In this document: positions 7,395 to 33,162 of the stretch, in pieces
Position numbering within the stretch: the stretch's first letter is position 1
Layout: each line of letters starts with the position of its first letter
From: a virus
Length of the DNA: 64,000 bases
Strand: one strand, 5' to 3'
Virus record (IMG/VR): IMGVR_UViG_3300050120_000230
Location: 150,325 to 214,324 of that record
Program-made: the position numbers and the translations under genes
The notes under the pieces: generated by a model
What the model was told of the DNA's origin: nothing
What the model saw: the letters and a program-made list of their open reading frames with translations, nothing else
The model's database searches: none

Positions 7395-7616
7395 AAACCT
7401 TTTCGGACTTACCGGTTCATCACCGCGCCGAGCGTGCCCCGAAGGGCGGAATTGGCACCACGAGGAAGACTTGCACTTCCATACCCTTGTCAACAGCAAG
7501 GCTCATCATATTCCCGCAGATCGTGGCCACGATCTCCGGCTTTTAGATCACCGTGGTATCTCGTGCCCTCTCGGGCATGTTCATGTTGGTAGCCGTTCCC
7601 CGCTAAGGGACAGTCT

Positions 7617-7673
7617 TATTCGTGGTGGGGATCGAACCCACGACCCAAGGCTCTACCGCTGAGCTACACGACC
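7617..7673 (-). ncRNA. anticodon-arm-less mini tRNA-like element (acceptor + D-arm + T-arm, 57 nt)
   Basis: GGTCGTG-TA-GCTCAGCGGTAGAGC-CTTGGGTC-GTGGG-TTCGATC-CCCAC-CACGAAT; only 8 nt between D and T arms. Confidence 0.4.
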
Positions 7674-8467
7674 TACACTACCACACTTTCACTCAGTTCG
7701 CGTGCACGCTCCCCGAGCTAAACCTAGATTGCGTGAACCTCTCAACGATAGAGCGGAAGGATCAGGCCGCTTCATTGCTTCCACGGCCCATACGATCCAA
7801 TCACCACGCAACCAAACCTTCGTGCCCATTCGGGCGAAATCTCCAACCACGCCCTCGCTCTAAGCGAACGACAACGGATCGGCGAGGTGTCATCGCTGTC
7901 TAGCCCACGATGGTCCCCTTCGGATCGCTCACGCTATATTTCAAGACGCAGCGCCGCAACTTTTTGCCCATTCAGGCGAATTGGTGGAGGGACTTCCCTC
8001 TCCAACGAAGCGGCTCGCGCGGGGCCATCTCCAAAGTCGGAGTGTGAAGTTGGGCCTACCCCCTAAGCAATGGCATTTCGGCCACTCAGGTTTATCCCAC
8101 TTTTCCAGCCTAGTCTCGGGTCTAGAAATCCCTACCTTCAGCTTCTCTCGACACTGAGGGCCAGACACTTCCTCCTGAACCCTCGCGAGGGTTAGAGAAT
8201 CTGCGCTGACACTTTTAGCTCGGAATGCTCACGCAATCCCGCCTCAGTAATTCGTGTTGCCTTCCCGAGATCAGAACGCTGGTAAACCGCCGGGCCAAAC
8301 CCTTTGGCTCTTCCAAGGACTTCTGGTTAGCTAATGCCGAACCAGCGCCCCGTTCTCAAGAACAACCTCAATCTACACCGCCCCCGAGAACGGTCAAGCA
8401 ATTTCTTTTGGTTGACCAAAAATCTTTTCGTGGGAGTATTCAATCTATAGTCAGCCGGGAGAACCAT

Positions 8468-8940: not shown

Positions 8941-9014
8941 TGGCAGGGGTGGAGAGAATCGAACTCTCGTCTTGGGTTTTGGAGACCCCTACTCTACCAT
9001 TGAGCTACACCCCT
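8941..9014 (-). tRNA. tRNA-Trp (anticodon CCA)
   Basis: manual cloverleaf: AGGGGTG/CACCCCT acceptor, loop CTCCAAA, T-arm GAGAG-TTCGATT-CTCTC, CCA encoded; A1-U72. Confidence 0.75.
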
Positions 9015-9094
9015 ATTAGATAACTTGGGATACCACCGGTTGCAAATCAGGATATATACGTAATACTTACGTATTTCCGGGGGCTATCACGACA

Positions 9095-9364
9095 ATGACT
9101 ACTCCATCTACGATCAACGGCGCCACTGTGACTATTGTCAGGATTGGCAAATCTCTCGTTTCCTTGCAGTCACAAAATCTCGTCACACAACCCGCAAGCG
9201 CCGGGCAGATGTCCTTCCAGATCAATTGCGATTCGAAGCTGCTGATCGCGAACTCGAAGATCACGATTTTCTCTTCGACGTTCGGTGCGAAGATCGACAA
9301 CGTCACCGTCCTCGCCGATCATTTCGGCGCGGGTAGTCACCAGATCACTGGCCACGTCATCTGA
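9095..9364 (+). CDS. small hypothetical protein
   Basis: 89-aa ORF between tRNA genes; weak RBS. Confidence 0.3.
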   Translation: MTTPSTINGATVTIVRIGKSLVSLQSQNLVTQPASAGQMSFQINCDSKLLIANSKITIFSSTFGAKIDNVTVLADHFGAGSHQITGHVI

Positions 9365-9368
9365 ATTG

Positions 9369-9458
9369 AGAATCAGGTGGGACTCGAACCCACGGGGACA
9401 AGCTTCGCTTGTTACGGGGGTAAAAACCCCGCCCTCTCGCCGCTGAGGTGACTGATCC
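9369..9458 (-). tRNA. atypical long tRNA-like gene (90 nt, long variable hairpin ACAAGC-GAA-GCTTGT, anticodon loop TTTTTAC reading TTT); identity uncertain
   Basis: acceptor GGATCAG/CTGATTC, T-arm GTGGG-TTCGAGT-CCCAC, anticodon stem CGGGG/CCCCG; three nt between acceptor and D stem. Confidence 0.45.
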
Positions 9459-9498
9459 ATTTATTGAACATTCGTAGAGATATCAATACTATTGGTTA

Positions 9499-10092
9499 AT
9501 GTTTTGTGAATTTTGTTCTGACTTGATTTCTTCTCGATATGGTTCTGGTCGTTTTTGTTCTTCCAAAAGTGCCAGAGGTTTCAGCACCAAAGCTAGGCGC
9601 GCAGAGATCAATTCCAAGGTCAGCAAGAAATTATCGAATAGACCGTCTGGTCGAACGCTCGATTGCGTGACCATTTCTTTTCTGGCTGACAAACGACGTG
9701 AAAAACTCATGGAACTGCCATGGGAATCAATTGGCCTATACGCCAAAAAATCTCGCGTTCTGGGTGAACAAAATCACCGGTGCAATGGATGCAACCTTGA
9801 TGAATGGCGGGGCCAGCCGTTGGTTTTGGAAATCGAACATAAAGATGGCAATAACCAAAACAACGCCCGAGAAAATCTCGAAGGCTTGTGTCCGAATTGC
9901 CATAGCCAAACGCCAACATGGCGTGGTCGTAACAAGGGTCGATCTAAATCAATCTCAGATCAAGAATTCATCGAACATCTGCAAGCTGCTAGCAGCATTC
10001 ATCGCGCGCTGTTGAGCTTAGGTCTCTCAGCGAAGGGAACGAATTATAACCGTGCGAGAACTCTCATCCAATCACATGGCATTTCTATGTGA
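9499..10092 (+). CDS. HNH endonuclease
   Basis: HNH signature ...CNGCNLDEW...EIEHKDGNNQNNARENLEGLCPNCH; stop abuts tRNA-Lys. Confidence 0.65.
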   Translation: MFCEFCSDLISSRYGSGRFCSSKSARGFSTKARRAEINSKVSKKLSNRPSGRTLDCVTISFLADKRREKLMELPWESIGLYAKKSRVLGEQNHRCNGCNLDEWRGQPLVLEIEHKDGNNQNNARENLEGLCPNCHSQTPTWRGRNKGRSKSISDQEFIEHLQAASSIHRALLSLGLSAKGTNYNRARTLIQSHGISM

Positions 10093-10168
10093 TGGTGAAC
10101 CCCCTCGGATTTGAACCGAGAATCTCCTCCTTAAAAGGGAGTTGCATTAACCGTTATGCTAGGGGTCC
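10093..10168 (-). tRNA. tRNA-Lys (anticodon TTT)
   Basis: GGACCCC acceptor, D GCAT/ATGC, loop CTTTTAA, T-arm CTCGG-TTCAAAT-CCGAG, CCA encoded. Confidence 0.75.
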
Positions 10169-10354
10169 GTTAGAAAGTAGCATTCAGAGGTGAATTCATC
10201 TCGGGATATTCTGTCGCGAGAACAGACCCTTCATATGTTCCCCAGCCAACGAAAGCCAGAACTAAAGCAATGATTGTGGTGCCGAGCGCGATTTTGAATG
10301 TCTTTTGCATAGCAACAATTTATCTCTCTGAGATGTTGCGATGCAATATATTTG

Positions 10355-10438
10355 AGGGCGCGGTGGGACTCGAACCCACGGTGTGCTTACGCAAAAAGAT
10401 TAAGAGTCTTCCCCCTTCGCCGCTCGGGACACGCGCCC
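10355..10438 (-). tRNA. atypical class-II-like tRNA (84 nt; Tyr/Ser-like D-loop GAGCGGCGAA, 15-nt variable arm) whose anticodon loop reads CTCTTAA (CTT); identity uncertain
   Basis: acceptor GGGCGCG/CGCGCCC, T-arm GTGGG-TTCGAGT-CCCAC; anticodon stem AAGA/TCTT. Confidence 0.45.
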
Positions 10439-10442
10439 ATGT

Positions 10443-10517
10443 TGGTGGATCGGGAGAGATTCGAACTCTCGACCTTGGGCTTAAGAGGCCCCTGCACTAC
10501 CGCTGTGCTACCAATCC
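10443..10517 (-). tRNA. tRNA-Lys (anticodon CTT)
   Basis: GGATTGG acceptor, loop CTCTTAA, T-arm GAGAG-TTCGAAT-CTCTC, CCA encoded. Confidence 0.7.
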
Positions 10518-10521
10518 ATTG

Positions 10522-10609
10522 TAGTCCTGCTTGGATTCGAACCAAGATCACGCCCCGATCTGGGACTACGGATTATAAATCCGACGCTCTGCCGTTGAGC
10601 TACAGGACC
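10522..10609 (-). tRNA. atypical long tRNA (88 nt, about 21-nt variable region) with anticodon loop TTTATAA (TAT); Ile-UAU-like or other, uncertain
   Basis: GGTCCTG acceptor, D GCTC-AACGGCA-GAGC, T-arm CTTGG-TTCGAAT-CCAAG. Confidence 0.45.
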
Positions 10610-10667
10610 AAAGGGTCTGCTGTAGCAGCGATATTCGTTTACTCATTTGGTCCTCCTCTTTTTGCTG

Positions 10668-10751
10668 TGCGCTCGGCTGGGCTCGAACCAGCAAGACCTT
10701 CCGGCCGCTCCGTTTTAAGTGGAGTGTGGCTACCAGTTTCACCACGAGCGC
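10668..10751 (-). tRNA. tRNA-Leu (anticodon TAA)
   Basis: class II: 3-bp D stem, loop CTTAAAA, 15-nt variable arm, T-arm GCTGG-TTCGAGC-CCAGC. Confidence 0.7.
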
Positions 10752-10756
10752 ATGAT

Positions 10757-10838
10757 TGGTGCCCCTCCTCGGATTCGAACCGAGATGCTTTCGCGCCAGA
10801 TTTTGAATCTGGTGTGTCTACCGTTCCACCAGAGGGGC
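10757..10838 (-). tRNA. tRNA-Leu (anticodon CAA)
   Basis: loop TTCAAAA, stem CCAGA/TCTGG, 11-nt variable arm (GCGAAAGC), CCA encoded. Confidence 0.75.
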
Positions 10839-10881
10839 ATAGAAACCTGAAGATCACATGGCGTGAACCTCAAGTCCATAT

Positions 10882-10963
10882 TGGTGCGGATGGAGGGAAT
10901 CGAACCCCCACGCTTTCGCAACAGATTCTAAATCTGCCGTGGCTACCGTTACACCACATCCGC
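10882..10963 (-). tRNA. tRNA-Leu (anticodon TAG)
   Basis: loop TTTAGAA, variable TGCGAAAGCGT, T-arm GGGGG-TTCGATT-CCCTC, CCA. Confidence 0.75.
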
Positions 10964-10971
10964 ATTGTAGT

Positions 10972-11058
10972 TGGTGCGAATAGCAGGACTCGAACCTGCA
11001 CGGCCTTTCGGCCACTGACTTCTGAAGCCAGCGCGTCTACCTATTCCGCCATACTCGC
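10972..11058 (-). tRNA. tRNA-Leu (anticodon CAG)
   Basis: D GCGG-AATAGGTAGA-CGCG as in bacterial Leu, loop TTCAGAA, 15-nt variable arm, CCA. Confidence 0.8.
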
Positions 11059-11066
11059 ATTGTATT

Positions 11067-11148
11067 TGGTGCCCAGAACAGGACTCGAACCTGCACGCCG
11101 AAGCAACATCCTCTCAGAATGCCGTGTCTACCGTTTCACCATCTGGGC
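11067..11148 (-). tRNA. tRNA-Leu (anticodon GAG)
   Basis: loop CTGAGAG, variable TGCTTCGGCGT, CCA. Confidence 0.75.
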
Positions 11149-11156
11149 ATTGTAGT

Positions 11157-11232
11157 TGGCACAACCGACTGGGCTCGAACCAGTGGCCTCATCCTTCGGA
11201 GGGATGCGCTCTTCCAACTGAGCTACGGCTGT
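11157..11232 (-). tRNA. tRNA-Arg (anticodon CCG)
   Basis: loop CTCCGAA, stem CATCC/GGATG, A1-U72, CCA. Confidence 0.7.
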
Positions 11233-11244
11233 AAATGATGTGCT

Positions 11245-11321
11245 TGGCAGAGACGACAGGGATCGAACCTGTGACCTCCTGATTCGTAGTCAGGCGCTCG
11301 TTCCGGCTGAGCTACGCCTCT
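11245..11321 (-). tRNA. tRNA-Arg (anticodon ACG)
   Basis: loop CTACGAA, stem CCTGA/TCAGG, T-arm ACAGG-TTCGATC-CCTGT, CCA. Confidence 0.75.
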
Positions 11322-11346
11322 GCAAAGCACATCATCGAAGTGTGTT

Positions 11347-11422
11347 TGGCTGGAACGGAGGGGATCGAACCCACGACCTTCAATTCCGCAAACTGACGCT
11401 CTTCCAACTGAGCTACGTCCCA
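11347..11422 (-). tRNA. tRNA-Arg (anticodon GCG)
   Basis: loop TTGCGGA, stem TCAGT/ATTGA, CCA; T-stem has one U-U mismatch. Confidence 0.65.
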
Positions 11423-16567: not shown

Positions 16568-16642
16568 AGTCTCTTAGCTCAGCGGTAGAGCAGCGTCTTG
16601 ATAAGGCGAAGGTCACTGGTTCAATCCCAGTAGGGACTACCA
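16568..16642 (+). tRNA. tRNA-Ile (anticodon GAT)
   Basis: loop TTGATAA, T-arm ACTGG-TTCAATC-CCAGT, CCA; A1-U72. Confidence 0.75.
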
Positions 16643-16657
16643 AATCGCAGGACTTAC

Positions 16658-16732
16658 GGGCGAATAACTCAGCGGTAGAGTGCCTCTTTCACACGGAGGA
16701 AGCCGGGGGTTCGATCCCCTCTTCGCCCACCA
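16658..16732 (+). tRNA. tRNA-Val (anticodon CAC)
   Basis: GGGCGAA acceptor, loop TTCACAC, T-arm GGGGG-TTCGATC-CCCTC, CCA. Confidence 0.7.
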
Positions 16733-16836
16733 CTACTCGATGAGTGACGTAGCTCATCAAGGTCTTTGACATCGTTGATAGCGTGAAATAACGGCCGCTC
16801 CCGTGATCGGGGGCGGCCGACTAAGAAGAGTTTTGC

Positions 16837-16909
16837 TGAGGATTAGTTCAGTTGGTAGAACGCCACACTCTGAATGTGGATGTCCGAGGTTCGAGTCCTT
16901 GATCCTCAG
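16837..16909 (+). tRNA. tRNA-Gln (anticodon CTG)
   Basis: U1-A72 acceptor TGAGGAT/ATCCTCA, D GTTC/GAAC, loop CTCTGAA; no CCA encoded; flanked by inverted repeat gaagagttttgc/gcaaaactcttc. Confidence 0.7.
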
Positions 16910-16966
16910 CAAAACTCTTCTAGTTTTTTCACAAGCGTCCGTCGCAAGACGGCGCCTGTGAACTAA

Positions 16967-17051
16967 TGGGGAATGGTGTAATGGTAACATCCCTGACTTT
17001 GAATCAGGAGACGAGGAGTTTATGTAGGTTCGAGCCCTACTTCCCCAGCCA
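16967..17051 (+). tRNA. tRNA-Gln (anticodon TTG) with unusually long (15-nt) variable region
   Basis: TGGGGAA/TTCCCCA acceptor, loop CTTTGAA, T-arm GTAGG-TTCGAGC-CCTAC, CCA; variable AGACGAGGAGTTTAT. Confidence 0.55.
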
Positions 17052-17073
17052 TATTTTACGCGATGTGTTTTGG

Positions 17074-17151
17074 TGCGGGATGGTAGCAGTCTGGTAGCTC
17101 GTTAGCCTCATAAGCTAAAGGTCAGCGGTTCAAATCCGCTTCCCGCACCCA
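17074..17151 (+). tRNA. tRNA-Met (anticodon CAT; elongator-type or Ile2-lysidine)
   Basis: fMet-like body (AGTCTGGTA D-loop, CTCATAA loop, T-arm AGCGG-TTCAAAT-CCGCT) but U1-A72 paired; CCA encoded. Confidence 0.7.
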
Positions 17152-17171
17152 AACACATCGCGAACCTTTGA

Positions 17172-17249
17172 CGCGGGAAGGACAAGACAGTTAGTCACTA
17201 GCCTCATAAGCTAGACATCTGGCAGATGCGAGCACTGCTCCCGCACCCA
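17172..17249 (+). pseudogene. degenerate duplicate of the tRNA-Met gene (tRNA pseudogene)
   Basis: shares the TAGC-CTCATAA-GCTA anticodon arm and TCCCGCACCCAAAC 3-prime end with the upstream tRNA-Met but lacks D and T arms; C1xA72 mismatch. Confidence 0.5.
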
Positions 17250-17324
17250 AACTTGGCACGGTGATGAACCGGTAAGTCCACAGAGTTATTGACTTGGTGC
17301 TACGAAAATCCGTAGCTGCAAGGT

Positions 17325-17657
17325 ATGAATGATCCACCCAAATTCGTCCGAGCCAGCCGCGAATATCGAGAGCATCTCATCGCTTTCGTTCAGCGGGCAG
17401 TTTGGGCGAGAGGACAGCCGGGTTTCGAGTTCGATGTGATGGGACGAACGTTCCTGATCGCGACCGAGACTGACTACCTTCCGGGTTGGTCAGCCCGGCC
17501 TCTAACTCAACCGGACTTGATCTTCTTCAAAATGTTGTCGCGAGAACGCGATGACAACCACTGGGGCGCCTATTGGCGTCGCGGCAAGGGGATGAAGGTT
17601 TACGGAAACAGCACCGTATTCGAGCGGGACATGCTTTTCCTCAAGTTCGCAGAATAA
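17325..17657 (+). CDS. paralog-family protein (two copies of the motif: DLIFFKMLS and ERDMLFLKFAE)
   Basis: 110-aa ORF between tRNA arrays; family motif at C-terminus. Confidence 0.5.
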   Translation: MNDPPKFVRASREYREHLIAFVQRAVWARGQPGFEFDVMGRTFLIATETDYLPGWSARPLTQPDLIFFKMLSRERDDNHWGAYWRRGKGMKVYGNSTVFERDMLFLKFAE

Positions 17658-17822
17658 GCGAAATATCGTACAACACGAAAAGCGATAAATCGTGCAAGGA
17701 ATCATCGGGATCAGCGTCGGCAGTTCCTCCCCTCGGGGTGTGAAAACGGACCCCCGGTGACTTAGGCTAGAGGGTTGTAGGTGACCTGTATTTGACTGGG
17801 AACCTTCGTCCATGTGTTTTGT

Positions 17823-17899
17823 CAGGGTGTAGCTCAGTCTGGTAGAGTGGCGTCCTCGGATGGCGAGGGTCGCAGGTTCAAATCCTGCCACCCTGACCA
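17823..17899 (+). tRNA. tRNA-Pro (anticodon CGG)
   Basis: C1-G72 acceptor CAGGGTG/CACCCTG typical of Pro, loop CTCGGAT, CCA; flanked by inverted repeat catgtgtttt/aaacacatg. Confidence 0.7.
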
Positions 17900-18071
17900 A
17901 ACACATGGTTCACCAAATGGATGTGCTTTCCGAGAGGCATGTTGTGCATCGTCAAGAACAATCACCGTCCGTAGAGGGACGCCCGAGCGGGTTGCGGAGA
18001 TTGTAGGAGACGATGTGCCAAGCGCGCGAACGGCTGCAAATCGGCATGTCTCGCGGTAAGCACATCCATGA

Positions 18072-18147
18072 TGGATAGTAGCTCAGTTGGTAGAGCTTTC
18101 GGTTGTTACCCGAATGGTCGCAGGTTCGAGCCCTGCCTATCCAGCCA
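18072..18147 (+). tRNA. tRNA-Asn (anticodon GTT)
   Basis: loop TTGTTAC, stem TTCGG/CCGAA, T-arm GCAGG-TTCGAGC-CCTGC, CCA. Confidence 0.7.
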
Positions 18148-18166
18148 AAATGACCTTCGGGTCTGA

Positions 18167-18241
18167 TTGGACGTAGCACAATGGTAGTGCAACTCCCTGT
18201 TAAGGAGAAGGTTGTAGGTTCGAGTCCTACCGTCCGAGCCA
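18167..18241 (+). tRNA. tRNA-Asn (anticodon GTT), second copy
   Basis: loop CTGTTAA, D GCAC/GTGC, T-arm GTAGG-TTCGAGT-CCTAC, CCA. Confidence 0.65.
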
Positions 18242-18331
18242 TTTCTGGGTGGGCTGCAACCCCCAACTTCATCCATCGGGTGAAGAGGTGAGACGCACAA
18301 AGCGCGTCTCTGACAAAGCGCAGCACATCAT

Positions 18332-18407
18332 GGGGCCATAGCTCAGTTGGTAGAGCGATTCCTCGGCAGGGAATAGGTCGCCGGTTCGACTCCGGCTGGC
18401 TCCACCA
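18332..18407 (+). tRNA. tRNA-Ala (anticodon GGC)
   Basis: G3-U70 identity pair (GGGGCCA/TGGCTCC), loop TCGGCAG (C at position 33), CCA. Confidence 0.7.
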
Positions 18408-18605
18408 TTAAAGAAAGCCCCGCTGTTTCCAGCGAGGCTCCCTAGACCGAATCCACCACCGCACCGAAGCGCGGACATCAAAGGTGGACATCGTCACAAG
18501 GGATGTCAAGACCCGCTGTCCAAGGCTTGGACGGCACTCGCTGTCCAAGGCTTGGACAGCACTCCGCACGGTGATGAGCCGATAAGTCGGCAGATTTTGC
18601 CCACC

Positions 18606-18640
18606 AAAAAAGGCCCCGGCGAACCGGGGCCTTGATGGCA
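18606..18640 (-). terminator. rho-independent terminator for the minus-strand gene ending at 18661
   Basis: ggccccggcgaaccggggcc hairpin followed (minus strand) by TTTTTT. Confidence 0.6.
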
Positions 18641-18660
18641 CTGCACCGAAGTGCGGATGC

Positions 18661-18858
18661 TTAGGCGGTTTCGGCGTCCGAGCGGGTCGCGTATTCGGCC
18701 TTCAGGGATTCGAGGATCGACTGCTTGGCGGTGGCGTCGGTGACCGACGTTTCGCCGAGTTCGCGTTCGACCTTGGAAATGGCGTTCTTGATGTGCGGGG
18801 TTGCCATCTTCGACACCGGGGTTTCCGTGGTGCCGGACTTCCAGACTGCTTCAGCCAC
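18661..18858 (-). CDS. small hypothetical protein (65 aa)
   Basis: GTG start with AAGGAGG 7 nt upstream; terminator immediately downstream. Confidence 0.55.
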   Translation of the reverse strand: MAEAVWKSGTTETPVSKMATPHIKNAISKVERELGETSVTDATAKQSILESLKAEYATRSDAETA

Positions 18859-18980
18859 AAGGGCCTCCTTGGTAGGTGGGTGGGAGTGCTAACCGGTTTG
18901 GTTAACGAAAACCATATATCCACCCCTGCGGCGTCATGTCAACAGCACAAAATCGTGCACTGCTCGTTGAGGGAAAACAC

Positions 18981-19054
18981 GGGGTAATAGCTCAATGGTC
19001 GAGCACCGGCTTCGCAAGTCGGGGATCAGGGTTCGATTCCCTGTTACTCCACCA
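18981..19054 (+). tRNA. tRNA-Ala (anticodon CGC)
   Basis: G3-U70 (GGGGTAA/TTACTCC), loop TTCGCAA, T-arm CAGGG-TTCGATT-CCCTG, CCA. Confidence 0.7.
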
Positions 19055-19079
19055 AACATAAATAGTTTCAACTACATAT

Positions 19080-19155
19080 GCTGTCTTAGCTCAGTTGGTA
19101 GAGCGCCGTATTGGTAATGCGGAGGTGGTGGGTTCGATCCCCGCAGTCAGCACCA
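19080..19155 (+). tRNA. tRNA-Thr (anticodon GGT)
   Basis: loop TTGGTAA, stem CCGTA/TGCGG, CCA; one acceptor mismatch. Confidence 0.65.
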
Positions 19156-19158
19156 TTT

Positions 19159-19235
19159 CAGGGTATAGCGCAGCATGGTAGCGCGTCACGTCGGGAACGT
19201 GAAGGTCGCAGGTTCAAATCCTGCTATCCTGACCA
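19159..19235 (+). tRNA. tRNA-Pro (anticodon GGG)
   Basis: C1-G72 acceptor CAGGGTA/TATCCTG, loop TCGGGAA (C33), T-arm GCAGG-TTCAAAT-CCTGC, CCA. Confidence 0.65.
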
Positions 19236-19241
19236 ATTAGG

Positions 19242-19547
19242 TCAATCCATACAGAACGGATTGGCGATGTTCGTCAGCGGCACAGTGTCCAAGATGATCG
19301 GGTTTTTGAAGAACTCGGACGTAAATTGATGCGAACCATTCGGGTTCATATATCGACGAGTTGCGGCCGTTTGGGCTCCCTTGACGGTTTTGAATACGCC
19401 GCTGAACCACATGATTTTATCAGCATCGCGTGGTGAGGTAACGCCGTACTGCCAAACGGTCATACCTTTCGGGTGTTCGATCCCTCTGGCATAGAACTTC
19501 TGCTCAATGGGAGCGTCATTCTCCGTGATGATTTCTCTCATACGCAT
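19242..19547 (-). CDS. hypothetical protein
   Basis: ORF 19242..19658 trimmed to an internal Met because its 5-prime end would overlap tRNA-Pro(TGG). Confidence 0.35.
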   Translation of the reverse strand: MRMREIITENDAPIEQKFYARGIEHPKGMTVWQYGVTSPRDADKIMWFSGVFKTVKGAQTAATRRYMNPNGSHQFTSEFFKNPIILDTVPLTNIANPFCMD

Positions 19548-19580
19548 ATGAATATTTAGGCCGCATGGCCAAACAGACAT

Positions 19581-19657
19581 CGGGGTGTAGCTCAGCTTGA
19601 TAGAGCATCCGGTTTGGGACCGGAGGGTCGGAGGTTTGAGTCCTCTCGCCCCGACCA
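19581..19657 (+). tRNA. tRNA-Pro (anticodon TGG)
   Basis: C1-G72 acceptor CGGGGTG/CGCCCCG, loop TTTGGGA, T-loop TTTGAGT, CCA. Confidence 0.7.
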
Positions 19658-19686
19658 ATTCAGAGACCTTCCCAAAGGGTCTCTAC

Positions 19687-19763
19687 GGTAATGTAGCTCA
19701 GTCAGGTAGAGCAGCGGGCTCATAACTCGCGTGTCGCTGGTTCGATCCCAGCCATTACCACCA
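19687..19763 (+). tRNA. tRNA-Met or tRNA-Ile2 (anticodon CAT)
   Basis: GGTAATG/CATTACC acceptor, loop CTCATAA, T-arm GCTGG-TTCGATC-CCAGC, CCA. Confidence 0.7.
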
Positions 19764-19764
19764 C

Positions 19765-19839
19765 GGACGATTAACTCAGCGGTAGAGTGCCTCTATGACA
19801 TGGAGGAAGCCACTGGTTCGATCCCAGTATCGTCCACCA
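19765..19839 (+). tRNA. tRNA-Val (anticodon GAC)
   Basis: one nt after the preceding tRNA; loop ATGACAT, T-arm ACTGG-TTCGATC-CCAGT, CCA. Confidence 0.7.
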
Positions 19840-19901
19840 ATTTACTTGACGAAACGCCCGTCCATGAGATCATATGTTGATCTTGCAAAGGGAGGGCATC
19901 C

Positions 19902-20177
19902 ATGACGACTGTGAAACTCTCCGAAGCGGAACACAACGCTCTCTCACTTCTGGTTCGCTCGGGCGGCTCGATCCTCACGTCGGCCATTCCCGATAAGAAC
20001 GAGAAGGACGTGTTTGACAACGTCGAGGCAGGCATCAAGGTCTACGTGAAACTTGAGACCCGTGGTCTGGTTGTCGTGACCGAGGAAGAGCCGTTCGAAC
20101 TTGAAGACGGCACCGAGTTCCAGTTCACGAACGAAGTCTACATCACCGACGAAGGTCGGCACGCTATCAACCGCTAA
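19902..20177 (+). CDS. hypothetical protein (91 aa)
   Basis: strong RBS AAGGGAGGG; acidic, protein-like composition. Confidence 0.55.
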   Translation: MTTVKLSEAEHNALSLLVRSGGSILTSAIPDKNEKDVFDNVEAGIKVYVKLETRGLVVVTEEEPFELEDGTEFQFTNEVYITDEGRHAINR

Positions 20178-20240
20178 CAGGCCACATATGGCCTATTAGG
20201 CGCCGGAAACGGTTCTAATAGGCCAACTATGGCCTCTTAT

Positions 20241-20315
20241 GCTTGGGTAGCTCAGGGGTAGAGCAGTGGGCTGAAAATCCGCGTGTCGTTGGTTCGATTC
20301 CAACTCCAAGCACCA
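20241..20315 (+). tRNA. tRNA-Phe (anticodon GAA)
   Basis: loop CTGAAAA, D GCTC-AGGGGTA-GAGC, T-arm GTTGG-TTCGATT-CCAAC, CCA. Confidence 0.75.
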
Positions 20316-20485
20316 TTTTGGTTATTTTGACCGCAAGGTAGATCATACCGCCCGGCCAAAGCAAACCGCCCCACAAAACTTGGCACAGAAATGTGCACAA
20401 GTCGAAGTGGTTGGATTTGATCTCTATGACCTGAAGAAGGCCCCAGAAGATCAATCCAATCAAAGAGTAAACAATCCATGGGCTC

Positions 20486-21616
20486 ATGCCCATATTTAGA
20501 GAGGAACGGTCCCTTGGAGTTTCACGGCTAAGCCCAGAGCGCCTTAATCGGTATCTGGCACTGCAAGATTTGACCGACGCATCGTCGGGCGAACACGCAA
20601 TCAACCTCGTGCTGGACAAGCTGGTAACGGCAATTGAGCAATGGTCGGGCCTCAAGGCAGACATCGTTCGGTCCACTCCTATCGTTTCCGTTCGGGACAA
20701 CTACGACCGGCTCTACTATGAGCCGGACGCGGTCGCACGCTCTGCGCGCTATTCCCACTACGTTGACGATGAGCACATTCTTCGCACCCACACGACGGCG
20801 GCCATTCCCGGCCTGCTGACGGAGACCACGGCCGACCGGCTGATGGTTCTACCGGGTCTTGTCTATCGCCGCGATGTGATGGATCGGATGCATGTGGGAG
20901 AACCGCACCAAGTCGATCTCTGGGTCGCTAGGCGGTCAAGGCTCCGTCGTGATGATCTGTTGAAGATGATCGGCGCGGTTCTCAACGCGATCCTGCCCGG
21001 CTGCGAATACCGCTGCAACGAGACAATCCATCCATACACAGTAAATGGCTTGGAGGTCGAGGTTCGTGTGGACGACCGGTGGATAGAGGTGCTCGAATGT
21101 GGGGAAATCCATCCGTGGCTTTTGAACGACAACGGCTTGCCTAGTCAGGAGTGGTCGGGCTTGGCGATGGGGCTGGGCCTAGACCGCCTTGTAATGCTCC
21201 TGAAGGGCATGGACGACATTCGGCTGCTTCGCAGCACGGATGCTCGTATTGCCCGCCAGATGGCTTCCCTGAGCCCCTACGAGGCTGTTTCGAACCAACC
21301 TATGACCAAGCGGGATATGTCGCTCACGGTGAGTGATCCTGACATCGAATTGATCGGAGATCGCATCCGGGTGGCGCTCGGTGATCGGGCTGACTGGTTG
21401 GAAGAGATCGTGGTCGTTTCGGCATCGAGTTGGGATGAAGTCCCGGCCGTGGCGAGGGAGCGTCTTGGGATGGCGCCTGAGCACACGAACCTGTTGCTGC
21501 GGCTCATCATGCGCTCACCGTCCGAGAGCATTCCGAAAGAGATCGCCAACGAAATCTACGACATAGTCTATGGCGAGCTTCACGAAGGATCGGCGGGGTA
21601 TCAGCGTGTATCATAA
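20486..21616 (+). CDS. pheS: phenylalanyl-tRNA synthetase alpha-subunit (PheS)-like class II aaRS catalytic core
   Basis: motif 2 VLPGLVYRRDVMDRMHVGEPHQVDLWV (cf. [27 protein letters not shown]) and motif 3 SGLAMGLGLDRLVMLLKGMDDIRLL (cf. [25 protein letters not shown]); ILRTHTTAAIPGLL matches LLRTQTSGVQIRTM; lies directly after tRNA-Phe. Confidence 0.75.
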   Translation: MPIFREERSLGVSRLSPERLNRYLALQDLTDASSGEHAINLVLDKLVTAIEQWSGLKADIVRSTPIVSVRDNYDRLYYEPDAVARSARYSHYVDDEHILRTHTTAAIPGLLTETTADRLMVLPGLVYRRDVMDRMHVGEPHQVDLWVARRSRLRRDDLLKMIGAVLNAILPGCEYRCNETIHPYTVNGLEVEVRVDDRWIEVLECGEIHPWLLNDNGLPSQEWSGLAMGLGLDRLVMLLKGMDDIRLLRSTDARIARQMASLSPYEAVSNQPMTKRDMSLTVSDPDIELIGDRIRVALGDRADWLEEIVVVSASSWDEVPAVARERLGMAPEHTNLLLRLIMRSPSESIPKEIANEIYDIVYGELHEGSAGYQRVS

Positions 21617-21766
21617 ACAAGACGGGAAGGCCCTTAATGCATCGTTTATGATGCACTACGGTCGATTTCACAGTCTAGTGCATCAGTTTTGATGCATTAC
21701 GCAATTCGCCAAAAATGACGAGTTATGAACAAAAATAGCCCTAACTCGTCAAAATTGGCGAATTAT

Positions 21767-21841
21767 GTCGATGTAGCTTAGTGGCTAAAGCATCCGGTTG
21801 AAACCCGGAGATCGGCGGTTCGAACCCGCCCATCGGCACCA
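21767..21841 (+). tRNA. tRNA-Phe (anticodon GAA), second copy
   Basis: loop TTGAAAC, stem TCCGG/CCGGA, T-arm GGCGG-TTCGAAC-CCGCC, CCA. Confidence 0.65.
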
Positions 21842-23045: not shown

Positions 23046-23495
23046 GTGCGGATGGAAGTTTGTCTCATTCGCCCCGACCATTTCGACGCCATGGATGACA
23101 TCCTGAATGGTAATGGGATGCCGCTCGCTCGTGCGTTCCCGCCGACCTATTTCGTGGCGCTGGATAGAGGGGAAGTCATCGGTGGTGGGGGATACGCCAA
23201 GATCAACCCAAGTACGGGCTGGCTGGCGTCTGTGGCCGTCGCCAAGCACCGCAAGCGCACCGGGGTGGGTTCGGCTGTCGTTGCCGCCAATCTACGCTAT
23301 GCGGCCGAACGTGGAATGGGGTCGATGTGGCTGGAAACGTATTTCTGGAACAGCCGGTTCTATGAGAGCCTTGGTTTCGAAGGCATCGCACCCGCCCTCG
23401 TCCCGGCTCGCATCAAGGAGTGGAGAACCAAGAAGCACTGCCGCTTCATGGCGAACACTCTATTGCCAGCGCATTTTGAAATGAAGCGCCTCTGA
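23046..23495 (+). CDS. GNAT-family N-acetyltransferase
   Basis: acetyl-CoA binding region VAKHRKRTGVGSAVVAANLRYAAERG and C-terminal YESLGFEGI. Confidence 0.6.
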   Translation: MRMEVCLIRPDHFDAMDDILNGNGMPLARAFPPTYFVALDRGEVIGGGGYAKINPSTGWLASVAVAKHRKRTGVGSAVVAANLRYAAERGMGSMWLETYFWNSRFYESLGFEGIAPALVPARIKEWRTKKHCRFMANTLLPAHFEMKRL

Positions 23496-32445: not shown

Positions 32446-33162
32446 TTACTTACGGACGCCGACGAATTGCAGCAGGAATTGGAACAGGTTGATGAAATCG
32501 AGGTAGAGGTTGAACGCTGACAGGTTGGCTCGAACGACCATATCGCCGCCATTCGCGTAATCGCTCTTCAGGCGTTGCGTATCGTAGGCGATGAAGCCTG
32601 AGAAAATCAGCACGCCGATGGCCGAGACGATGAAGTGCATACCGGGGATGAAGATCGAAGCGATCATCGCGACGATCAGCCCGAAGAGAGCCGCGAACAG
32701 GAATCCACCAATGGGTCCAAGATCGCGCTTCGTTGTGTAGCCCCACAGGCTCAACGCACCGAACATCGCCGACGTTATGACGAACGTCGAAGCCAGCGAC
32801 ATACCGGTGTAGATTTGGAACAACACGCCGCTGCTGATGCCGAACATCACGGAAGACGCGTAGAACAGGAAGGCGCTTCCCCCGCGTGTGGCCGTGTTCT
32901 TCAGCAGCCATCCCATGACGAGGATCAGCACGATGGGGCCGAAGCAGACGGCCATCCCGAGGATCGTGTAATCGATCTTGCCGTTAGGCAGCGTGTGGAA
33001 AAAGGCGTTGCCGAATGCGGTGTTGCCGGTCAACCACGCAAGGGCGGCCGTAATCAGCAATCCCACCGCAAGGCGATTGTAGACGCTGATGAGAAAGGCG
33101 CGAAGCCCGATGTCGTAGTCGGCGTCAGTGCGAACGCCGGAAACAGTTTGATCCAAGTCCAT
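32446..33162 (-). CDS. Bax-inhibitor-1 / YccA-family 7-TM protein
   Basis: seven hydrophobic helices; overall architecture and ...FIAYDTQRLK... region typical of BI-1/YccA. Confidence 0.65.
   Translation of the reverse strand: MDLDQTVSGVRTDADYDIGLRAFLISVYNRLAVGLLITAALAWLTGNTAFGNAFFHTLPNGKIDYTILGMAVCFGPIVLILVMGWLLKNTATRGGSAFLFYASSVMFGISSGVLFQIYTGMSLASTFVITSAMFGALSLWGYTTKRDLGPIGGFLFAALFGLIVAMIASIFIPGMHFIVSAIGVLIFSGFIAYDTQRLKSDYANGGDMVVRANLSAFNLYLDFINLFQFLLQFVGVRK

Follow-up and report, generated by a model that had tools for sequence, protein, structure and literature searches.

Annotation tools and aminoacyl-tRNA synthetases alike use the rule that a long variable arm is found only in the transfer RNAs (tRNAs) for leucine, serine, tyrosine and selenocysteine (Leu, Ser, Tyr and Sec; amino acids are given below by their three-letter codes). 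Long arms have nevertheless been described together with other anticodons. The nev-tRNAs are conserved gene families that combine a long arm with non-Leu/Ser anticodons, Ile(UAU) included. The allo-tRNAs, found in Acidobacteria and in phage tRNA clusters, are defined by a branch of 12 base pairs (bp) split 8/4 or 9/3 and by a tRNA-Sec-like long D stem with a tetraloop, and only 8/4 Ser and His species were reported from the alpha-proteobacterial phage clusters examined by Mukai et al. (PMC5389517). Here we describe long-arm tRNA genes with Lys and Ile anticodons in a stretch of 64,000 nucleotides (nt) from IMG/VR virus record IMGVR_UViG_3300050120_000230 (positions 150,325 to 214,324 of that record), the whole of which we call the window.

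We called tRNA genes in the window with ARAGORN and with the Rfam RF00005 covariance model, which has a gathering score of 29 bits. Three long genes lie inside one minus-strand tRNA array:

9368..9458, minus strand: tRNA-Lys(UUU) with a long arm (ARAGORN; Rfam 45.0 bits)
10354..10438, minus strand: tRNA-Lys(CUU) with a long arm (ARAGORN; Rfam 47.0 bits)
10521..10609, minus strand: tRNA-Ile(UAU) with a class-I D arm and an arm hairpin (ARAGORN; Rfam 63.5 bits)

An initial annotation, made from the letters alone, had proposed three long tRNAs with TTT, CTT and TAT anticodons, and ARAGORN agrees in the same registers with coordinates within 1 nt. It had also raised the concern that its hand fold was mis-registered, which ARAGORN and Rfam refute; the 7-nt anticodon loops in the ARAGORN cloverleaves are UUUUUAC in 9368-9458, CUCUUAA in 10354-10438 and UUUAUAA in 10521-10609. 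Each gene matches RF00005 over its full length (model positions 1-71 of 71) and above the gathering score, and the ARAGORN cloverleaves share a 7-bp acceptor stem, a 5-bp T stem, U33, A37 and a hairpin in the variable region. The class-II layout assigned to all three genes stands for the variable hairpin; for the D arm only the two Lys genes look class-II-like, clearly so in 10354-10438 with its 3-bp D stem and enlarged D loop and less certainly in 9368-9458, and the layout falls in the Ile(UAU) gene. We confirm the observation, whose extent goes beyond what the initial annotation saw.

The Lys(UUU) gene measures 90 nt to the discriminator and has G2-U71 and U73. Its variable arm consists of UA, a stem of 5-6 bp (ACAAGC/GCUUGU at 6 bp), a GAA-type loop and a CCCC linker. 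ARAGORN draws its D arm with a 4-bp stem, an 8-nt loop and a 3-nt connector, in a register that is ambiguous within the family, and the Lys(CUU) genes of phages phiCbK, Rogue and Kikimora have the same D-arm subtype. Homologues of this gene at 73-78% identity occur in Caulobacter and Brevundimonas phages. The Lys(CUU) gene measures 84 nt to the discriminator, again U73, and carries the D loop GAGCGGCGAA on a 3-bp stem. Its variable arm is a U followed by a 3-bp UGC/GCA stem, a GUAA tetraloop and a CACC linker, and the gene is 80% identical to a tRNA-Lys of CcrColossus. For both window Lys genes the nearest relatives are Caulobacter-phage genes, at 74-80% identity.

A blastn search of cultured phages recovered long tRNA-Lys genes of 84-91 nt, labelled in GenBank as plain tRNA-Lys and once as tRNA-Ser. 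Their carriers are the Caulobacter phages phiCbK, Magneto, Karma, Swift, Rogue, Colossus, CcrPW and BL10; the Brevundimonas phages Kikimora and Gurke; Rhodobacter phage RcXuper; the Ruegeria/Roseobacter phages V10 and DSS3P8; Mesorhizobium phage Cp1R7A-A1; Rhizobium phage RHph_I1_18; the Xanthomonas phages XacN1 and X1; and Microcystis phage Mwe-JY26. The tRNA clusters examined in the Caulobacter phages (5-8 kb) contain no Lys tRNA other than the long genes. Individual long genes have been in GenBank as "tRNA-Lys" since 2012. The phiCbK-like Lys(UUU) gene is called tRNA-Lys in most records and is unannotated in some, and the Ccr32 copy (L001 2494-2584) is labelled tRNA-Ser with "codon recognized UCG"; we attribute these inconsistent labels to the class-II shape.

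To find uncultured relatives, we searched IMG/VR with a pattern that runs from the anticodon loop through the linker to the T arm, which returned at least 120 loci (L009-L128). The 120 listed loci, eight cultured-phage loci and the window make up a survey set of 129 sources, on all of which ARAGORN was run; the counts in this paragraph and, unless stated otherwise, those on phage tRNAs below refer to the matches listed. Long tRNAs with anticodons other than Leu, Ser or Tyr occur in at least 98 sources. At least 67 distinct long Lys and at least 49 distinct long Asn(GUU) genes are built on one chassis: a 7/5 acceptor/T branch, U8, a core 3-bp D stem with a loop of the GAGYGGNNGAA type, a variable arm in which 1 nt precedes a stem of 3-6 bp, closed by a tetraloop (mostly GNRA) and followed by a linker of 4 nt (CAYC or CCCC), and a T arm of the form GWGRG-UUCRARU-CYCWC. 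The arm layout with one unpaired nucleotide 5' and four 3' recurs in about three quarters of 107 members. Of 55 loci with a long Lys gene, 35 also hold a short one.

We aligned 26 long Lys and Asn genes, including 10354-10438 (alignment A1); they were picked from members with a 3-bp arm stem in ARAGORN, a choice that favours pairing. In the arm helix 100% of cells are paired and all three pairs have changed on both sides, with a covariation score of 0.657 against 0.19 for shuffled alignments (0 of 500 shuffles as high). Over the whole alignment 94.9% of cells are paired, double changes occur in 20 of 24 pairs and every helix covaries. The chassis apparently has 3 nt, rather than 2, between the acceptor and D stems; ARAGORN draws the 3-nt spacer in 27 of 67 Lys and 27 of 49 Asn genes, and each of the alternative D-arm registers (A1 columns 8-15 and 25-30) is paired in about half of the sequences. 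A chance origin is excluded because homologues exist elsewhere and the helices covary. From these alignments, we conclude that the two Lys genes are members of a conserved phage Lys/Asn long-arm family.

The initial annotation had allowed that the three genes are pseudogenes. This is not supported: they belong to conserved families, compensatory changes occur in all helices, and a related soil phage, L249 (see below), keeps the long Lys(CUU) gene and a long Gln(UUG) gene with compensatory stem changes. A related proposal is that the genes have no role in translation and serve as decoys or sponges for nucleases or synthetases, as regulatory RNAs, or are simply decaying. The three window genes do lack an encoded CCA (N73-CAA; the Lys(UUU) gene ends in UCAA), while 26 of the 31 window tRNAs encode it. 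Phage tRNAs may also form non-productive complexes with effectors (PMC12409363), and in E. coli the majority of the allo-tRNA(UAU) species showed no activity (Mukai et al., PMC5389517). Set against this, the full cloverleaf is conserved, including the acceptor stems, the T loop, U33 and A37, CCA is encoded in the orthologues of the long genes in Caulobacter phages and L249, and the long genes are the sole Lys tRNAs of the Caulobacter phage clusters. We give the idea of a non-translational role hardly any credence.

The Ile(UAU) gene is built differently. Its D arm is of the ordinary class-I kind (GCUC/AACGGCA/GAGC), its variable arm has a 5-bp GUCCC/GGGGC stem, an AGAUC loop and a GUGAU linker, and its acceptor end has G1-U72 and A73. 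Among neighbours of pattern matches in the loci already examined we found further long Ile(UAU) genes, and aligned 12 (alignment A2): the window copy, four from IMG/VR contigs, one from a metagenome-assembled genome (MAG) of Methyloligellaceae and six from Acidobacteriota tRNA arrays, which hold 7-27 tRNAs per locus (19-27 in four of them). A blastn search of the cultured-phage collection returned no convincing long homologue of this gene or of a long Gln(UUG) gene described below. The acceptor stems are unrelated in sequence across A2, and the D arm is class I in 12 of 12. The arm stem of 4-5 bp is 97.9% paired, with both sides changed in three of four pairs and a 3' linker of 5-6 nt; overall, 92.9% of cells are paired and 17 of 21 pairs show double changes. 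An additional -1:73 pair can be drawn in two of the Acidobacteriota relatives, and their T stem is still 5 bp.

In the arm loop of the long Ile(UAU) genes G-A-U is invariant in 12 of 12 (A2 columns 53-59; about 10556-10562 in the window). Drawn as a 7-nt loop, the arm reads C-R-G-A-U-N-A and matches the anticodon loop of the major tRNA-Ile(GAU) except at position 33, which suggests that GAU may be a natural pseudo-anticodon. The arm might therefore be a specific protein handle. In the Ile(UAU) tRNAs, whose real UAU anticodon is a poor identity signal, the loop would mimic tRNA-Ile(GAU) and recruit IleRS or an enzyme that modifies A37 or U34; in the Lys/Asn chassis a phage factor would recognize its own tRNAs through the arm. 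The invariance of the three nucleotides despite wholly different acceptor stems is consistent with a handle, as is a 5-nt GYGAU linker common to the window gene and several Acidobacteriota array copies. An engineered pseudo-anticodon in the variable arm can raise aminoacylation (PMC7590224), and the window encodes at least one synthetase-like protein, resembling PheRS. However, the Lys/Asn arm loops are generic GNRA tetraloops on freely covarying stems and carry no sequence-specific signal, an arm of 4-5 bp should, from known geometry, lie far from the anticodon-binding domain of a class-I synthetase, and no candidate binding protein was identified among the approximately 50 window open reading frames (ORFs) scanned. 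Taken together, we regard a handle as unlikely.

The array around the three genes contains further features, and a second array lies on the other strand:

8941..11422, minus strand: tRNA array of 14 genes (Trp, Lys x4, Ile, Leu x5, Arg x3), called by ARAGORN and Rfam
10093..10168, minus strand: class-I tRNA-Lys(UUU) ending in A73-CCA (ARAGORN; Rfam 63.2 bits)
10443..10517, minus strand: class-I tRNA-Lys(CUU) ending in A73-CCA (ARAGORN; Rfam 67.3 bits)
9499..10092, plus strand: HNH homing-endonuclease-like ORF of 197 amino acids (phrog_14736, E=3.5e-26; weak Pfam HNH_3 match)
16568-21841, plus strand: second tRNA array of 17 genes, called by ARAGORN and Rfam
16967..17051, plus strand: tRNA-Gln(UUG), a fourth long tRNA (ARAGORN; Rfam 59.4 bits)

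ARAGORN finds 31 tRNA genes in the window, in these two arrays. Both class-I Lys genes had been reported as neighbours of the long ones, and ARAGORN places them as listed; likewise, the reported lack of Ser and Tyr tRNAs holds for all 31 genes (0 of 31). The class-I gene at 10093-10168 has the same anticodon, UUU, as the long gene at 9368-9458, and the HNH ORF lies between the two on the opposite strand. The class-I Lys(CUU) gene is separated by 4 nt from a long tRNA on either side. We consider it likely that the HNH ORF drives tRNA cassette mobility. T4 SegB, as cited in PMC8421152, is a precedent for endonuclease-driven inheritance of tRNA arrays.

The Gln(UUG) gene, which is missing from the initial annotation, measures 82 nt to the discriminator and has a class-I D arm, a Gln-type acceptor end (U1-A72, G73), an encoded CCA and a variable-arm hairpin of 4-5 bp. 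Its D arm and extra arm match those of a long Val(UAC) in locus L067, so this chassis crosses isotypes. Long arms also occur on many other tRNAs of the survey loci. Among neighbours that the pattern had not selected, we counted 14 long Ile, 9 Met, 8 Thr, 8 Cys, 5 Asp and 4 His, whereas Gln, Glu, Pro, Arg, Gly, Val, Trp and Phe are represented by one or two genes apiece; no long-arm Ala tRNA was among these neighbours in the loci listed. Ile, Met and Thr are enriched within this set (31 of 242 compared with 29 of 570 for other isotypes; odds ratio 2.7, p=3e-4), and 8 of 31 Cys tRNAs have a long arm. When scored against the Lys/Asn family profile, long Thr, Cys and His tRNAs rank above any canonical Tyr, Leu or Ser tRNA, and we therefore think that one chassis has been re-used for several identities.

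The opposite change is also seen. Acidobacteriota arrays L129, L186, L205, L208 and L226 contain armless tRNA-Leu genes of 74-77 nt, and a Mesorhizobium phage (L006 1117-1273) has them too, a reverse architecture swap. By these comparisons, architecture appears to be swapped both ways while the identity elements stay.

A 91%-related soil phage with the same array order, L249 (Ga0207711_10001323), allowed a direct comparison at its positions 86-360 and 7548-7740. Its orthologue of the long Lys(CUU) gene is kept with two compensatory acceptor-stem changes, and its long Gln(UUG) is kept with a compensatory T-stem change; these substitutions show the signature of purifying selection on both genes between L249 and the window. 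Elsewhere the slots differ. Where the window has the long Ile(UAU), L249 has a 73-nt class-I CAU tRNA (Met or lysidine-type Ile2), and where the window has a 73-nt class-I Asn(GUU), L249 has an unrelated long Asn(GUU) of 85 nt. The difference between the two phages looks like cassette replacement at fixed slots.

Such swaps, together with the HNH endonuclease within the array, could also be explained by an arm that is a neutral or stabilizing passenger: it would be spread by homing endonucleases, may stabilize poorly modified tRNAs and would have no role in conflict, its insertion being tolerated by synthetases that read the anticodon and the acceptor end. The many isotypes affected are consistent with this, the long arm is dispensable for LeuRS (PMC9976931), and the same arrays contain armless tRNA-Leu. 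A passenger does not readily account for a defined geometry and CAYC linker that are conserved across very divergent phages with compensatory stem changes, for the non-random isotype spectrum, for the re-use of a shared chassis for several identities or for the frequent coexistence of a class-I copy with the same anticodon. We find a mere passenger improbable.

We also scanned bacterial genomes, one per species, with the same family-specific pattern and obtained at least 120 matches. Among the 120 matches listed, 62 contain no tRNA, most of the others are off-target and 10 are on-target. Dense tRNA arrays account for seven of these 10; they are found in Bradyrhizobium sp. Ai1a-2 (22 tRNAs within 8 kb), in two MAGs of Methyloligellaceae and on contigs of Marinifilum, Deltaproteobacteria, Elusimicrobia and an uncultured bacterium. 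A 3-kb alpha-proteobacterial MAG contig has one long Asn as its sole tRNA. Lone long tRNA-Lys(UUU) genes, with no array within the 8-kb locus, occur in MAGs of Actinomycetota (L147 5179-5263, on a 359-kb contig) and Thermoleophilia (L239 6852-6937, on an 826-kb contig), and these two copies may be chromosomal or belong to an integrated element. A host-encoded class-II tRNA-Lys is not supported, the on-target matches listed being mostly in arrays. We conclude that the bacterial copies look like parts of phage-derived or mobile arrays and not like housekeeping genes.

We next considered which amino acid the long tRNAs would carry. Across the 129 sources, among the matches listed, the discriminator and the 1-72 pair of long-arm tRNAs track the isotype of the anticodon. 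Long Cys tRNAs have U73 (8 of 8), His C73 (4 of 4), Ile A73 (15 of 15), Asp G73 (4 of 5) and Gly U73; long Pro has C1-G72 with A73, and long Trp A1-U72 with G73. Long Asn has G73 in 30 of 49 and U1-A72 in 21, and long Lys has A73 in 36, U73 in 28 and C73 in 3. Arm geometry points the same way. Counted as unpaired flanking nucleotides (5', 3'), the long Lys/Asn arms are (1,4), compared with (1,1) in Ser, (1,2) in Leu and (1,3) in Tyr; in the window the Lys genes have (1-2,4) and the Ile gene (1,5). The Ser geometry was seen in 24 of 44 phage tRNA-Ser with a parsable arm.

None of the three genes has the full set of identity elements known for Ser, Tyr or Leu. SerRS reads arm size and orientation (PMC9976931), and in place of the G73 of Ser and its arm orientation, with one unpaired nucleotide on either side of a stem that usually has 5 bp or more, the Lys genes have U73 and the Ile gene A73, with a different geometry. 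For TyrRS, A73 and U35 are critical and G34 contributes (PMC9976931); the Lys genes have U35 with U73 and U34 or C34, and the Ile(UAU) gene has A73 with A35. LeuRS requires A73 and specific tertiary elements of the D and T loops (PMC9976931), whereas the Lys genes have U73 and the Ile(UAU) gene has A73 on a class-I D arm unlike that of the five tRNA-Leu of the window. For LysRS of both classes U35 and U36 are the major elements, with A73 as a contributor in the class II enzyme and of marginal weight in class I (PMC9976931). Both window Lys genes have U35, U36 and A37, with U73 in place of A73. The E. coli Ile identity set reportedly comprises A73, A37/A38, the anticodon (G34 or lysidine34, A35, U36), C4-G69, U12-A23 and C29-G41 (Nureki et al. 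1994). The Ile(UAU) gene has A73, A35, U36, A37, A38, C4-G69 and U12-A23; it has U34 at the first anticodon position and lacks C29-G41.

The U73 of the long Lys tRNAs may relate to the host enzyme. Class-I LysRS is the enzyme of most alpha-proteobacteria (PMC1475646). Among the matches listed, long Lys genes are associated with alpha-proteobacterial-type tRNA-His (12 of 18 versus 2 of 16, p=0.002), and U73 is found in 9 of 17 long Lys genes from loci with such a tRNA-His compared with 1 of 10 from loci with a canonical one (p=0.04). This skew is consistent with A73 being marginal for class-I LysRS. The long Lys genes of Xanthomonas and Rhizobium phages have A73, and the Microcystis phage copy, with U73, is the exception. 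A strict confinement of long Lys to hosts with class-I LysRS, an enzyme whose side of binding would expose the arm to solvent, had initial support from the Caulobacter, Brevundimonas, Rhodobacter, Ruegeria and Mesorhizobium phages and the Bradyrhizobium array, whose clades are listed as having this enzyme (PMC1475646), and is refuted by the copies in XacN1, RHph_I1_18 and Mwe-JY26.

The alternative is that these are missense or recoding tRNAs, charged by SerRS, TyrRS or LeuRS, with which Lys and Ile codons would be deliberately mistranslated; the initial annotation had similarly raised Ser/Tyr-derived tRNAs with altered decoding. Several points speak for this and against cognate charging. The Lys genes have a class-II-like body, with the D loop GAGCGGCGAA in one of them, and their U73 is a non-canonical Lys discriminator. 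U73 also occurs in 17 of 60 phage tRNA-Ser of the survey set (among the matches listed), and in allo-tRNAs G73 or U73 together with a long arm has been taken as a hint of Ser identity (PMC5389517). Tyr and Lys anticodons share U35, and of the canonical class-II types Tyr scores best against the Lys/Asn family profile. In addition, PMC3333845 and PMC4300185 report that nev-tRNA-Ile(UAU) and nev-tRNA-Gly(CCC) are leucylated in vitro. Mischarging is, however, hard to reconcile with an arm geometry distinct from those of Ser, Leu and Tyr, with the absence from the window Lys genes of A73, which is critical for LeuRS and TyrRS (PMC9976931), with the class-I D arm of Ile(UAU), or with acceptor ends that fit the anticodon's amino acid in other long isotypes (Cys, His, Pro, Trp, Asn and Gln). 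Moreover, the Caulobacter phage clusters examined have no other Lys tRNAs than the long ones, and a proteome-wide change of Lys to Ser or Tyr would seem costly. We judge missense decoding to be quite unlikely, and an origin from Ser or Tyr tRNAs with altered decoding is not supported. Normal Lys and Ile charging is favored because the acceptor elements follow the anticodon and the arm geometry differs; on these sequence features, the long tRNAs would be charged with the amino acid of their own anticodon. A distant Tyr-like ancestry of the chassis is plausible.

For the arm itself, we lean, by no great measure, toward the view that the long genes encode functional phage tRNAs with cognate charging in which the arm would act as camouflage from tRNA-targeting nucleases or toxins; escape from such nucleases is our best guess at its function. 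Lys(UUU) and Lys(CUU) are built on a phage-specific long-arm chassis, and Ile(UAU) is a class-I tRNA with an inserted hairpin. In this model, host synthetases would charge the long tRNAs according to their anticodons, and the charged tRNAs would decode AAA, AAG and AUA normally. The extra arm and altered core might, as a more tentative step, make the phage copy unlike the host class-I tRNA. Nucleases or toxins of host defence, or of the phage's own host shut-off, would then miss the long tRNAs, and synthetases, EF-Tu and the ribosome would still accept them. Homing endonucleases in the array would move the cassettes, and related phages would swap class-I and long tRNAs at the same slot.

A precedent comes from PARIS. 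Its nuclease AriB acts on Lys(UUU), Thr(UGU) and Asn(GUU), which it cleaves between positions 40 and 41, beneath the variable region, and it also reads the D loop; phage T5 requires its own variant Lys, Thr and Asn tRNAs to escape AriB (PMC12409363). The isotypes of long-arm phage tRNAs overlap the targets of such nucleases, and the frequent retention of a short Lys gene beside a long one and the armless tRNA-Leu of the same arrays count in favor of camouflage too. The slot turnover between L249 and the window is as expected under conflict. The long arm is also a feature by which other toxins discriminate tRNAs, such as human SLFN11 with type-II tRNAs and MenT3 with tRNA-Ser.

Other observations weigh against camouflage. 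The motif U36-A-A-U-C near the AriB cut site is present in 21 of 24 long Lys and 27 of 41 long Asn tRNAs, and is rarer in short phage copies (13 of 32 Lys and 10 of 34 Asn). This retention is opposite to the way in which T5 escapes, and consequently any protection would have to come from the tRNA body. The two window genes differ here: 9368-9458 reads U36-A-C-C-C-C and has lost the motif, whereas 10354-10438 reads U36-A-A-U-C-U and has kept it with A41 changed to U. The D loops of the window Lys genes lack U16-U17. In addition, the excess of Lys and Asn among long-arm tRNAs stems from the search pattern, and the bias to UGU, the anticodon of 7 of 8 long Thr tRNAs among the unselected neighbours, is by itself not significant (p=0.065). 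Finally, a scan of approximately 50 window ORFs against Pfam or PHROGs revealed neither a tRNA nuclease nor an RNA ligase or kinase; the matches were to PheRS-like, HNH, GNAT, Bax1-I and collagen-like tail-fibre proteins.

A broader version of the camouflage model is possible, and we put it forward tentatively: remodelling of the whole tRNA body would be a general counter-defence, in which a shared chassis is re-targeted to Lys, Asn, Thr, Cys, His and other identities, Leu is stripped of its arm and Ile gains a GAU pseudo-anticodon. Changes to the anticodon and discriminator could conceivably re-target the chassis, with the shape read by nucleases altered and the identity elements kept. It is similarly speculative that GAU ensures Ile identity or modification where the UAU anticodon would otherwise be ambiguous.

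The remaining genes of the window give some indication of its source. One of them lies in the second tRNA array:

20486-21616, plus strand: PheRS-alpha-like ORF of 376 amino acids (PF01409, class II catalytic core, E=1.2e-34)

Genes for tRNA-Phe(GAA) at 20241-20315 and 21767-21841 flank this ORF, and no PheRS beta subunit is evident. Its product shares 45% identity with a protein of the uncultured phage LR745206 (635 kb), and its 41 relatives come mostly from soil metagenomes. The ORF may encode a phage phenylalanyl-tRNA synthetase that works as a single chain. A GNAT-family acetyltransferase ORF (23046-23495, plus strand) lies directly downstream of the tRNA arrays, and some GNAT toxins acetylate aminoacyl-tRNAs. 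A Bax1-I/YccA-like membrane protein is encoded at 32446-33162 on the minus strand (PF01027, E=2.7e-48), which is unusual for a phage. The window also contains a collagen-like tail-fibre ORF and a virion-protein-like ORF, and most of its ORFs have no Pfam or PHROG match. A promoter and terminator scan of the window gave nothing above chance. An IMG/VR query with two window proteins returned no close relatives, and a metagenome scan did reveal relatives. The window appears to come from a giant phage of soil, judging from its 31 tRNAs, its PheRS-like gene, its tail-fibre-like ORF and the orphan status of most of its ORFs.

Several described systems resemble these genes in part. Like the long phage tRNAs, allo-tRNAs are bacterial or phage tRNAs with long arms, many non-Ser anticodons, among which UAU is prominent, and G73 or U73 (PMC5389517). 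We rejected allo-tRNA membership: the window genes are not allo-tRNAs because their branch is 7/5 rather than 8/4 or 9/3, and their D arms are ordinary or Tyr-like. A tRNA-Sec-like identity was likewise rejected for the long tRNAs of the window. The nev-tRNAs are nematode nuclear tRNAs with Leu (or Ser) identity that are leucylated in vitro and are thus missense tRNAs, whereas in the phage tRNAs the acceptor ends agree with the anticodon and the arm geometry is distinct, the genes lie in phage or mobile arrays, and the Lys genes lack A73. Among canonical types bacterial tRNA-Tyr is the closest, sharing a 3-bp D stem with a loop of the form GAGCGGNNRAA, an arm stem of only 3 bp, several unpaired nucleotides 3' of the arm and U35. 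The Lys/Asn family nevertheless differs from it in an NUU rather than GUA anticodon, in U73 (or A73) and in a 3' linker of 4 rather than 3 nt, and it forms a cluster of its own, scoring nearer to the long Thr, Cys and His phage tRNAs than to any Tyr.

The T5 tRNAs Lys(UUU), Thr(UGU) and Asn(GUU) are similar in being phage duplicates of host isoacceptors that have been proposed as replacements after cleavage by defence systems (PMC11464382, PMC12409363). They differ in being class-I tRNAs with point changes at 39, 41 and the D loop, whereas here the whole architecture is changed and UAAUC is mostly kept; anticodon-loop escape variants of phage tRNAs have been described as well (PMC10264068). 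Should the arm give protection from nucleases of the PARIS, PrrC or Schlafen type, it would be a new route of counter-defence, and, if true, this would help to explain why large phages have many tRNAs that often duplicate their own anticodons.

We found no description of long-arm Lys, Asn or Ile phage tRNAs in the full-text literature searched, which mostly excludes subscription journals, and the long-arm Lys/Asn and Ile(UAU) phage families are apparently previously undescribed. They would show how far the body of a tRNA can vary and offer natural, ribosome-compatible scaffolds for genetic-code engineering. They would also explain odd labels, with one phiCbK-type gene called tRNA-Ser and others tRNA-OTHER or pseudo.

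The setting of the genes is familiar from known dense tRNA arrays, which hold 20-40 divergent tRNAs and homing endonucleases and spread horizontally (PMC8421152). The papers on such arrays cover their organization and expression, and the passages searched do not mention a swap between class I and class II; genes of the long Lys or Ile(UAU) kind recur in the arrays of Bradyrhizobium, Methyloligellaceae and Acidobacteriota. Finally, all three window genes share with class II tRNAs a long variable arm that forms a hairpin, and differ from them in having the anticodons UUU, CUU and UAU instead of those for Leu, Ser, Tyr or Sec. Compared with class II, then, these widespread and covariation-supported phage tRNAs break the structural rule and apparently keep the coding rule.

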